A stretch of 64,000 bases of DNA from the NCBI GenBank assembly GCA_937921595.1, contig CAKZTD010000023.1:12742-76741 (forward strand), in the 5' to 3' direction. Shown here piece by piece: positions 41,725 to 43,779 of the stretch (within the stretch, counting starts at the first letter, position 1; each line of letters starts with the position of its first letter). Both the position numbers and the translations under genes were made by a program. This DNA is from an uncultured Saprospiraceae bacterium (GTDB taxonomy: Bacteria; Bacteroidota; Bacteroidia; Chitinophagales; Saprospiraceae). The notes under the pieces are model-generated. The model was not told where the DNA came from. It worked only from the letters and a program-made list of their open reading frames with translations, and did not search any database.

Positions 41725-43779
41725 ATGGCAAAAACCTATATCCTCCACAGAAACAACCAGGAAATAAAAATCCAAAAAGAAACCGAATACTTCACTGCCA
41801 TCGTCAATGACGAAGAACTCATCTACGAAGTCAATCAAAACCCCGAAGTGGCAAAAGTCAAACGCGTCTTCAACAATGTTTTCAAAATAAAAGCTACAGG
41901 TAAAGATTGTAACGCCTTAGTCGACAAACTTAGGGCAAAATACGATACCCGAATGGTCTTCCATCATGCTTACAAACCAGCAGGTGACGCTTCGACCAGA
42001 TACTACATCACCGATATGGTAGCTGTTCGGTTCAAAGCAAACACCAGCAATTCAAAAATAGAAACCATCCTAACTGATTGCGGTTTACAATTCATTAAAC
42101 AATACCGAGATCACAAACACTCTTATCTTTTCAAAGTCACCAAGTCTGCAGGAAAAAATCCAGTAAAACTTTGCAACGATCTTCATGTCATGCCTGAAGT
42201 AGATTATGCAGAACCAAACCTCGTCAATCGTTTTGACAAAACGGCTTCGCCTACAGATTCTCATTTTTACTATCAATGGCATTTAAAAAGTAGACCAGGA
42301 GTAGAGCTCGTTGCTGGAGCGGATGTCGATGCGGAAGGTGCTTGGAAAATCACCAAAGGTACCCGAGATATTATCGTTGCTGTGATAGATGATGGATTCG
42401 ACCTTACCCATCCTGATCTAAGAGGAAAAGACAAAGTCGTACATGCAAGAGATTTTGTAGATGGAGATAAATCACCATTTCCAGTAGAAGCACATAATGA
42501 CTATCATGGTACGCCATGTGCCGGTGTTGCCATCGGAGAAGAAAACGGAAGTGGAGTCGTAGGAATCGCACCGGGTTGTGCCTTCATGCCTATCCGATTT
42601 GATCTAGCAGCTGATGATGATTTGCTTTGGGAAATTTTTGATTATGTTGGAAAAAGAGCTGATGTTATTTCTTGCAGCTGGGGGCCAGTTCCTGTGTATG
42701 CACCACTAGGAAGTTTACTCGATAGAAAATTTACAGAGATTGTAAAATCCGGAGGACCAAGAGGTAAAGGTGCAGTCCTTTTATTTGCTGCTGGTAATTT
42801 TAATGCTCCATTAAAAGATTTTGGAAACACCGATTTCCAATGGCGGCATCCTTCTCATGGAATTGTCAAACAAGCGAGAGCAATCCTCAATGGTAACTGT
42901 GCTCATAAAGAAGTCATGGCTGTTGCTGCTTCTACGAGTCAAAACAAAAAAGCTGCTTACAGTAATTGGGGAAAAGAAATCAGTGTCGCTGCGCCAAGTT
43001 CCAATTGGCATCCACTCGATCCTTTTGAAAAAATGCCAGGTCGTGGAATCTGGACAACAGATAATGAAAATTTTGGACTTGGATTTACGGGAAATAGTCG
43101 GTACACCGGACTCTTTGGAGGAACCTCCAGCGCTACGCCACTCGTTGCAGGTGTTGCGGCCCTAGTCATGTCTGCCAATAAAGATCTTACCGCAAAACAA
43201 GTTAGAACGATTATAGAAACAACGACTGATAAAATTACTGATGACAGTACTGATATTGTTTTAAAACATAAAAAAGGAGCCTACGATGGTCGTGGAAAAG
43301 CCAGTCATTCCGAATGGTTTGGTTTTGGAAAAATCAATGCTGCCAAAGCTGTTGCTTTAGCTAAATCTATGGCTACTGGACCCAATCAGTCAACAAACAC
43401 AGAAACGACTCCCAAGCCTAAACCTAAAACACCTAAAAAGCCAAAAGCCATCACAACTGGCATCTCTATTGTCGCTGCATTGGTCAATCCAAAAGGCAAA
43501 GAAACCAACAAGGAAACCATCACGCTACTCAACCAAACAGACAAAGCGGTAAAGCTCGATGGTTGGTACATTTCCAATAAACCAAATAAAAAACAATTGC
43601 TCGATAAGTTAAGCATTGAGCCCAACGCTTTTCTTACAGTCAAGGTAAAATCAAAAAATATAAAATTGGTAAATACTGGTGGTACCATTACCCTTTTTAA
43701 TTATGATGATAAAAATGTCCATGAAGTGAAGTATACTAAAAAAGCAGCTTCAAAAAATGGTTGGACAACTAGATTTTAA
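41725..43779 (+). CDS. S8 subtilase with C-terminal lamin-tail (LTD) domain; no signal peptide
   Basis: Catalytic motifs VAVIDDGFDLTHPDL, HGTPCAGVAIG and GGTSSATPLVAGVAAL. PKPKPKTPKKPK linker, then IVAALVNPKGKETNKETITLLNQTDKAVKLDGWYISN (LTD-like). Confidence 0.85.
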   Translation: MAKTYILHRNNQEIKIQKETEYFTAIVNDEELIYEVNQNPEVAKVKRVFNNVFKIKATGKDCNALVDKLRAKYDTRMVFHHAYKPAGDASTRYYITDMVAVRFKANTSNSKIETILTDCGLQFIKQYRDHKHSYLFKVTKSAGKNPVKLCNDLHVMPEVDYAEPNLVNRFDKTASPTDSHFYYQWHLKSRPGVELVAGADVDAEGAWKITKGTRDIIVAVIDDGFDLTHPDLRGKDKVVHARDFVDGDKSPFPVEAHNDYHGTPCAGVAIGEENGSGVVGIAPGCAFMPIRFDLAADDDLLWEIFDYVGKRADVISCSWGPVPVYAPLGSLLDRKFTEIVKSGGPRGKGAVLLFAAGNFNAPLKDFGNTDFQWRHPSHGIVKQARAILNGNCAHKEVMAVAASTSQNKKAAYSNWGKEISVAAPSSNWHPLDPFEKMPGRGIWTTDNENFGLGFTGNSRYTGLFGGTSSATPLVAGVAALVMSANKDLTAKQVRTIIETTTDKITDDSTDIVLKHKKGAYDGRGKASHSEWFGFGKINAAKAVALAKSMATGPNQSTNTETTPKPKPKTPKKPKAITTGISIVAALVNPKGKETNKETITLLNQTDKAVKLDGWYISNKPNKKQLLDKLSIEPNAFLTVKVKSKNIKLVNTGGTITLFNYDDKNVHEVKYTKKAASKNGWTTRF

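Follow-up and report, generated by a model that had tools for sequence, protein, structure and literature searches.

Several toxin-delivery loci carry a separate gene for a subtilase of family S8. In Staphylococcus aureus, the S8-PTS peptidase is established as a separately encoded enzyme that matures a delivered toxin (PMC9424270, PMC13556192), and maturation of secreted substrates by separately encoded S8 enzymes has been proposed for the mycosin of the type VII secretion system (T7SS) and for SphB1 of Bordetella. For the extracellular contractile injection systems (eCIS), a releasing peptidase built into the toxins has been proposed, namely the PVC-metallopeptidase or DUF4157 (eCIS_core) domain (Zhang 2012, PMC3482391). 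Here we examine a stretch of 64,000 nucleotides from an uncultured Saprospiraceae bacterium (assembly GCA_937921595.1, contig CAKZTD010000023.1; hereafter the window), in which an eCIS locus is followed on the same strand by a contiguous gene for an S8 subtilase with a C-terminal lamin-tail-type domain (LTD) and no signal peptide, which we call S8-LTD. We show that the family to which it belongs is recurrently, though optionally, linked to DUF4157-type eCIS loci, most tightly to the ATPase and DUF4157 genes, and S8-LTD itself is probably a genuine member of an eCIS-associated accessory family. The best overall explanation, to which we assign a probability of roughly 0.45, is that S8-LTD is a zymogen-type, kexin/furin-like S8 enzyme of a leaderless family and an optional eCIS accessory that acts as a processing protease; the processing role, taken by itself, is put forward tentatively.

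S8-PTS, mycosin and SphB1 resemble S8-LTD in that a separate S8 gene lies in a toxin-delivery locus, and their cleavage of a substrate in trans is the working model for S8-LTD. They differ from it in that they carry Sec signals and work outside the cytoplasm, whereas S8-LTD has no signal and is partnered with an eCIS with DUF4157 cargo. The S8-PTS peptidase lacks a pro-domain and is found with BetaH-domain toxins and immunity genes (PMC9424270), whereas S8-LTD has pro-like domains and eCIS neighbours. S8-LTD was rejected as a T7SS mycosin, scoring 120.7 bits against the cut-off of 278.75 for NCBIfam TIGR03921. DUF4157 is like S8-LTD in linking a protease function to the eCIS payload region, but it is a zincin-like domain within the cargo, whereas S8-LTD is a separate and optional gene with a different fold. 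The IetAS system, in which an AAA ATPase (IetA) and an S8 enzyme (IetS) are adjacent, is another likeness, and the eCIS ATPase of the window gives sub-threshold IetA matches; however, a complete eCIS includes this ATPase as its Afp15-type component, S8-LTD is often found with no ATPase, and identity with IetS was rejected, PADLOC giving no IetS match and only the generic PDLC03014 "subtilase" (4.1e-10). The intracellular subtilisin proteases (ISPs) of the Bacillus type belong to the subtilisin subfamily and have a short pro-peptide, with no double pro-domain and no C-terminal beta-sandwich, and their PDB chains match S8-LTD far more weakly than kexin or furin do. They are alike in being signal-less S8 enzymes with an N-terminal extension, which holds ISPs inactive (PMC6220982). 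Identity with AlgoCIS-type cargo (Cgo1/Cgo2-like) was also rejected, with no PF13699 match and an N-terminus that is folded from residue 4 rather than forming a disordered leader.

The gene and the parts of its product are as follows.

41725..43779, + strand: S8-LTD gene, an open reading frame (ORF) of 684 amino acids (aa) with an ATG start and zero internal stops; full-length orthologues are 50-83% identical
41725..41979, + strand: N-terminal domain 1 (aa 1-85), a family-specific beta/alpha module starting from the initiator Met
41983..42231, + strand: pro-like domain 2 (aa 87-169), from a Fervidolysin_NPro-like match and the pattern of the AlphaFold2 (AF2) model
42364..43242, + strand: Peptidase_S8 catalytic domain (Pfam, aa 214-506), with a fold that reaches about aa 175-550
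42388-42390, 42505-42507, 42796-42798 and 43126-43128, + strand: catalytic D222 and H261, oxyanion N358 and catalytic S468, respectively
43375..43458, + strand: disordered Pro/Lys/Thr linker (aa 551-578), from the sequence and a predicted local distance difference test (pLDDT) score below 50
43462..43776, + strand: C-terminal LTD-type beta-sandwich (aa 580-684), from a sub-cut-off PF00932 match and the AF2 model

The Peptidase_S8 (PF00082) match spans residues 214-506 at an E-value of 5.4e-40 and 137.9 bits, against a cut-off of 21.8. The canonical Asp/His/Ser motifs described by the initial annotation are intact, with D222 in VIDDG, H261 in DYHGTPCAG, the oxyanion N358 in AAGN and S468 in GGTSSATP, and all four residues are invariant in an alignment of 41 relatives. 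The same annotation had described a Pro/Lys linker followed by an LTD-like beta-sandwich, and both are recovered here. The linker between the protease and the LTD reads TETTPKPKPKTPKKPKA and falls below a pLDDT of 50 across residues 554-572 in the AF2 model (built on 41 sequences, mean pLDDT 85), while residues 580-683 are modeled as an eight-strand all-beta domain at a pLDDT of about 90. The LTD (PF00932) match covers residues 580-671 at 31.6 bits, slightly below the gathering cut-off of 34.3, and a precomputed PF00932 annotation is present for most orthologues. This C-terminal slot is held by the LTD here and by two P_proprotein domains or a PPC domain in relatives; two P_proprotein domains are found by Pfam in members G028, G157, L151 and L118, and across the wider family the C-terminus consists of an LTD, a PPC, a P-domain or none of these.

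The N-terminal 170 residues are conserved throughout all lineages of the family. Domain 1 is modeled as strands and helices in the order E4-27, H31-37, E42-57, H62-76 and E77-85, and carries the motif Y-x-L/W-R-G-G-x-x-I-x-I/L-E-K-E-x-x-F-T, in which R9 and T24 are invariant and I14 almost invariant across distant members. Residues 93-167 form a beta-alpha-beta-beta-alpha-beta unit that resembles a pro-domain and is followed by a hinge (168-173) at a pLDDT below 50; the Fervidolysin N-prodomain match at 87-165 is weak in S8-LTD and stronger in the relative L151 (2.8e-9). Pro-like domain 2 ends at a near-invariant junction, A-E-P-N-L-(V/I)-N-R/K-F, where A162, E163 and P164 are invariant and R169, the last residue of the domain, is present in at least 90% of members, with K in one. 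The position after R169 is a predicted autoprocessing site with a basic P1 residue.

The absence of an export signal, as claimed by the initial annotation, is confirmed by two features of the gene. The first 60 residues contain no hydrophobic segment (the highest 12-residue Kyte-Doolittle mean is 0.47), and the open frame reaches just 16 codons 5' of the ATG, which leaves no space for a concealed signal peptide. The other S8 enzyme in the window (6711-8318), correctly singled out by that annotation for its leader and its sorting domain of the type IX secretion system (T9SS), has a 12-residue maximum of 2.38 together with a Por_Secre_tail (T9SS sorting) domain. The leaderless state is also a property of the family: a profile built on aa 1-185 retrieves 249 clusters (50% identity) at E<=1e-10 and 1395 at E<=1e-3, and matches to the N-terminal module nearly always start inside the first 30 residues of the target protein. 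Judged from its sequence, the product of S8-LTD is an intact, conserved, leaderless, kexin-like protease of predicted zymogen type.

The closest structural comparison is with the kexin/furin group (S8B) and with ASP of Aeromonas sobria, which also scores well. Kex2 and furin are the best PDB sequence matches (7.5e-21) and the best Foldseek matches (about 1e-22), the latter search giving a probability of 1.00 to many subtilases. S8-LTD is like these enzymes in its DDG and (D/N)DYHGT(R/P)CAG motifs, in its inhibitory-type N-terminal pro-domain with a basic residue at the end, and in the beta-sandwich straight after the catalytic domain. It differs in that it has neither a signal peptide nor a secretory-pathway context, in its two N-terminal pro-like domains, and in that the P-domain that follows the catalytic domain of kexin and furin is replaced by an LTD-type domain. 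Relatives of S8-LTD retain the acidic S2-type residues D223 and D259, and a preference for a basic P1 is hinted at by the conserved R/K where the pro-domain ends.

The link between this family and eCIS loci extends well beyond the window. We checked 27 Saprospiraceae eCIS loci of the same subtype for adjoining family members, and found an orthologue of S8-LTD after the ATPase in five and another family S8 in one locus each of genomes G188, G174 and G028. These are a likewise leaderless S8-LTD after the ATPase that is 32% identical (G188), a related S8 that flanks the locus (G174), and a divergently oriented S8 with two P-domains at 1.8 kb from the cap gene (G028). The lineage of the G188 protein is linked to eCIS or DUF4157 genes in four of seven genomes, with G029, G003 and G172 also among the linked ones, and its arrangements vary: after the ATPase, convergent with an ATPase, divergent from the cap gene, or after two DUF4157 genes. 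A scan of metagenome contigs gave 80 loci, 15 of them with eCIS genes in the flanks, and many of the others have less than 3 kb of flank. Among the linked loci the gene order is ATPase-S8-DUF4157 in L149, L193 and L181; ATPase-S8 (two P-domains)-385 aa-DUF4157 in L151 and L152; tape measure protein (TMP)-ATPase-DUF4157-PAAR-S8 (PPC) in L144; DUF4157-200 aa-S8 in L137; VgrG-S8-gp25 in L188; and ATPase-470 aa-DUF4157-DUF4157-S8-(PG_binding+CHAP)-DUF4157 in L153, with an 11-nt overlap and a 4-nt gap. The eCIS_core, WHD+AAA and PAAR identities of these neighbours were verified by Pfam.

In a tree of 118 members, almost all deep lineages include eCIS-linked proteins, and in the non-LTD lineages about half of the loci that could be assessed are eCIS-linked. 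The simplest reading is that eCIS linkage is ancient in the family and has often been lost in the Saprospiraceae S8-LTD clade. From locus and genome sizes, we estimate that in a 7-Mb genome any one gene would fall within 5 kb of an eCIS with a probability of the order of 0.2-0.3%, and the independent juxtapositions therefore far exceed chance. Genome searches at the level of the class and in a second family returned only relatives that were of the PPC type or had diverged C-termini and were not eCIS-linked, in one family rich in metagenome-assembled genomes (MAGs).

Within the window, the locus that precedes S8-LTD contains genes for a Pvc16_N cap, sheath, tubes, LysM tube initiator, VgrG, Baseplate_J, CIS_TMP, two eCIS_core/DUF4157 proteins and an AAA ATPase, with the following features.

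13638..41596, + strand: eCIS locus proper, from the Pvc16_N cap gene to the ATPase gene (Pfam)
33013..40182, + strand: two DUF4157/eCIS_core cargo-type genes, encoding 1778 aa and 590 aa (PF13699)
40271..41596, + strand: eCIS AAA+ ATPase of the Afp15/Pvc15 type (PF00004, AAA_lid_3), directly 5' of S8-LTD
41597..41724, + strand: C/A-rich 128-nt spacer between the ATPase and S8-LTD, with three AGCC-N5-GGCT mini-hairpins (41644, 41670, 41696) at a 26-nt period and a degenerate fourth
12182..13241, + strand: ftsY (SRP54 domains, synteny) plus an intrinsic terminator at 13188-13241 (hairpin and T-run)

ATPases that are 50-64% identical occupy the equivalent position in related loci, and the DUF4157 proteins of 33013..40182 are candidate substrates of S8-LTD. 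The gene starts 128 nt past the ATPase and in the same orientation, as previously noted and as the ORF coordinates bear out. A terminator scan found no T-tract terminator on the + strand of the spacer, and the accompanying promoter scan used a sigma-70 model that is unsuited to Bacteroidota promoters. The AGCC-N5-GGCT pattern has one other occurrence within the window; the array is missing 5' of every orthologue examined, and being unique to this genome it is uninformative on the family. At the other end, ftsY is the conserved upstream border, by synteny, of a variable slot that holds the eCIS, and the terminator that follows it, with a 16-bp stem and a long T-run, marks the start of the eCIS promoter region. 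No direct repeats common to both eCIS borders and no compositional island at the eCIS were found, the G+C fraction being 0.33-0.40 throughout. The window genome (G000) has a second eCIS locus on contig C66, cut by the contig end.

To place the S8-LTD clade itself, we sampled 201 Saprospiraceae genomes, of which 27 have an orthologue and 62 have CIS_TMP. The two co-occur: CIS_TMP is found in 20 of the 27 genomes with S8-LTD as against 42 of the 174 others (odds ratio 9, p = 8e-7, uncorrected for phylogeny). In its tree, S8-LTD splits into two clades, each corresponding to one of two chromosomal contexts, and the gene is vertically inherited in both. In the first, S8-LTD follows FtsY, and an eCIS block lies between the two in the window genome and in G054. 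In the second, the order is caspase-CAP, S8-LTD, DUF6503, IF3 and ClpB, and an eCIS lies between CAP and S8-LTD in G183; the downstream flank of G166 is the same as in this context. The orthologue is directly 3' of the eCIS in the window genome, G054, G183 and G166. In G185, of the same genus as the window genome, the order is TMP, DUF4157 (1661 aa), Imm49, three unknown genes, S8-LTD and ATPase, and the stop of S8-LTD overlaps the start of the ATPase gene by 23 nt. An eCIS and S8-LTD thus adjoin in two unrelated chromosomal places. The Imm49 immunity-protein gene of G185 (L044:8827-9663) comes directly after the 1661-aa DUF4157 cargo gene, which suggests an antibacterial cargo in that sister locus.

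The presence of the eCIS at these sites is variable. Comparison of 13638-41596 of the window with L001:8787-10000 shows the 28-kb eCIS block to be present or absent as a whole within one genus, and genus g22 (G183 versus G021) shows the same polymorphism at another chromosomal site. A 259-aa ORF between FtsY and S8-LTD in L001 was considered as an eCIS remnant and rejected, as Pfam gives no match to it and none of the fetched loci contains a homologue. Two further sets of genes recur around the family. A gene family of about 343 aa without a Pfam match lies at eCIS 3' ends or is paired with the S8 gene (L084:11039-12067, L081:2901-3899, L089:10145-11173, L045:~5200-6205, L112:5227-6177), and in G060 its member is flanked by FtsY and S8-LTD; the family may represent another optional accessory gene or the remnant of a lost eCIS. 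An ORF of about 200-220 aa, likewise without a Pfam match, lies directly 5' of the family S8 gene at L085:10576-11235, L084:12543-13088, L107:559-1212 and L109:3265-3927, spanning four genomes and two bacterial families; it has no counterpart in the window and may encode a partner protein of the S8 enzyme. One family S8 comes from a contig labelled as a Methanosarcinales archaeon MAG (L009) and sits on very short branches beside metagenome copies L141 and L142, and this contig is probably misbinned.

A number of results weigh against S8-LTD as an eCIS processing protease. Co-occurrence with eCIS loci, the check proposed by the initial annotation, gave a mixed outcome: adjacency recurs across many lineages and the odds ratio is high, but 19 of the 27 same-subtype eCIS loci have no family S8 gene at all, and no eCIS gene lies within 5-10 kb of 26 of the 33 S8-LTD orthologues that could be assessed. 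About seven of the 33 are therefore eCIS-linked, although the neighbours were found mainly by BLASTP against the window proteins, so that highly divergent systems may escape and unlinked loci be over-counted. CIS_TMP, CIS_tube and DUF4157 are absent from five genomes that have S8-LTD, G125 (100% complete), G146, G165, G187 and G196. In the closest relative (G023/L001; same genus, 80% identity), the order is S8 (T9SS)-FtsY-259-aa ORF-S8-LTD, with no eCIS, and both flanks are syntenic with the window despite this absence; by itself, that locus would point to an unrelated neighbour. Inherited synteny can explain part of the adjacency within Saprospiraceae. As for specificity, the acidic S1 loop of furin, WGPEDDG (WGP(E/A)DDG across kexin and furin), reads WGPVPVYAP in S8-LTD. 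AlgoCIS loads DUF4157 cargo from a cluster whose description mentions no peptidase or subtilisin (PMC8894135), and the S8 protease is therefore not generally required.

The DUF4157 proteins themselves provide a further comparison, based on 49 DUF4157 domains from the window (33013-40182) and from genes of 33 other loci. Motifs of the form [ILV][NQH][RK] follow the domain in 17 of 22 cases with an S8 gene and in 17 of 27 without one; the motif is thus not enriched and lends no support to the processing role. Together with the many eCIS loci that have no S8 gene, this negative result speaks strongly against a necessary role. Nor is the motif denser in the cargo than in the other eCIS proteins of the window. 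Across all 49 domains, [VIL]-Q/N/H-[RK] occurs within 60 residues (mostly 5-30) past HExxHxxQ in 34, whether or not an S8 gene is present, and it may be a general processing site.

The initial annotation had left three readings side by side, a processing protease, a third cargo and an unrelated neighbour. The last of these is disfavoured by recurrence in independent lineages and gene orders, while the data do not separate processing from cargo. The alternative that survives best, though we regard it as unlikely, is that S8-LTD is an independent cellular protease, a resident and vertically inherited gene whose upstream slot happens to hold an eCIS island that is repeatedly lost or gained, such that its position is historical and there is no functional link in this organism. 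FtsY and S8-LTD adjoin without an eCIS in G023, G196, G100, G171 and L136, as do CAP and S8-LTD in G021 (congeneric with G183), L004, L005 and L125. The five genomes without an eCIS marker argue in the same direction, as does the scatter of eCIS adjacency over the S8-LTD tree, which needs at least five changes, and two more leaderless S8 paralogues in the window genome (634 and 614 aa; contigs C336 and C168) lie away from eCIS genes. Against this, two unrelated chromosomal contexts each have an eCIS at exactly the position upstream of S8-LTD, the G185 gene is inside an operon and overlaps the ATPase start, the genome-level odds ratio is 9, and distant paralogous lineages in other taxa and gene orders are embedded in eCIS loci well above the chance estimate. 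Where the upstream eCIS block has been lost S8-LTD is kept, and it must therefore have an eCIS-independent use as well.

A second alternative, which we consider less probable still, is that S8-LTD is a delivered effector, or third cargo: the protease would be loaded and injected, its pro-domain protecting the producer and its LTD, PPC or P-domain targeting the recipient. The architecture is one usual for exported proteases (a pro-domain with an LTD, PPC or P-domain), yet a signal peptide is absent; the gene takes variable positions in the payload region, among DUF4157 toxin genes and near the loading ATPase, and its C-terminal domain varies as in polymorphic effectors. The S8 gene of L153 also adjoins an effector-type PG_binding+CHAP gene. 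As an observation on that locus, this PG_binding_1 + CHAP peptidoglycan-hydrolase gene (L153:10310-11203) begins 4 nt past the S8 gene, within the eCIS payload region. However, S8-LTD is without the long disordered leader and the DUF4157 domain of proven AlgoCIS-type cargo (PMC8894135; bioRxiv 10.64898/2026.05.27.728243), and a conserved folded domain, beginning at residue 1-20, occupies its N-terminus. Intact copies are kept in eCIS-less genomes and far from eCIS loci, which is hard to explain if the injector is the only exit, and no immunity-like partner was identified adjoining S8-LTD.

A third alternative, some other eCIS-linked role, either as an extracellular hydrolase, freed by lysis, that acts with the particles on the target surface or matrix or as a cytoplasmic destroyer of unloaded or incoming DUF4157 toxins, is the least probable, for although particles of the Afp/PVC/AlgoCIS type exit the cell by lysis, which would free a leaderless enzyme together with them, extracellular-type domains occur here without an export signal, and the retention of orphan S8-LTD genes resembles that of orphan immunity genes (an immunity-like role would explain the eCIS-less copies), immunity proteins are usually small binders and a site-specific kexin-like fold is unusual for bulk matrix degradation.

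Processing is preferred over cargo because the fold is that of processing endoproteases, because the protein has no disordered leader or DUF4157 domain, and because orphan copies persist without an injector. Under the processing reading, the S8-LTD enzyme would be made in the cytoplasm and autoprocess at AEPNL(V/I)NR|F, after R169. The processed enzyme would then cut eCIS cargo or particle proteins in trans and site-specifically, with the adjacent DUF4157 proteins as prime candidates. Cleavage could take place in the cytoplasm of the producer during ATPase-dependent loading, or upon lysis, when particles and cytoplasm are released together. The C-terminal LTD may serve as a binding or stabilising domain that stands in for the P-domain of the proprotein convertases. 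A more specific version, in which this S8 family provides the so far missing protease that matures DUF4157-type eCIS cargo in trans and cuts a short [ILV]-[NQ]-[RK] linker motif found after most DUF4157 domains and resembling its own junction, is one that we hold to be rather unlikely. If it is true, cleavage in the course of ATPase-driven loading would free the effector domain or split polyprotein cargo, the 1778-aa double unit being one example, and eCIS biology would gain a step that is new, widespread and open to engineering.

Literature searches that paired S8, kexin or LTD proteins with contractile injection systems gave no description of such an S8 family, and neither the eCIS surveys (Chen 2019, Geller 2021, Xu 2022 and the main text of Danov 2024) nor the catalogue of receptor-binding domains mentions such a protease. 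Traces of it can be seen in published tables. The supplement of Danov 2024 (PMC11297309) lists "Peptidase_S8,LTD" and "PD40" as neighbours of a predicted 2087-aa double-DUF4157 toxin in Dyadobacter ginsengisoli, an arrangement that, as given in that supplement, closely parallels the window. Table 1 of Zhang 2012 (PMC3482391) includes "Subtilisin" among the proteases of the PVC pathway without comment, the gene family not being described, and the Geller supplement, on our reading of its unlabelled table columns, has LTD five times in eCIS operons, an enrichment of about 2.7-fold that is non-significant.

Taken as a previously uncharacterised, facultative eCIS-associated family, these proteases extend the theme of secretion-system maturation subtilases, and would add to T7SS mycosin, SphB1 and S8-PTS another toxin-delivery system with its own subtilase. 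Should the gene have no effect on the particle, its recurrent linkage to eCIS loci would still call for explanation. Given that eCIS particles are under development as programmable protein-delivery devices, and that cargo loading and processing are their least understood steps, a family that in many lineages lies beside the loading ATPase and the DUF4157 cargo genes is a concrete, testable candidate for a processing or activation step.

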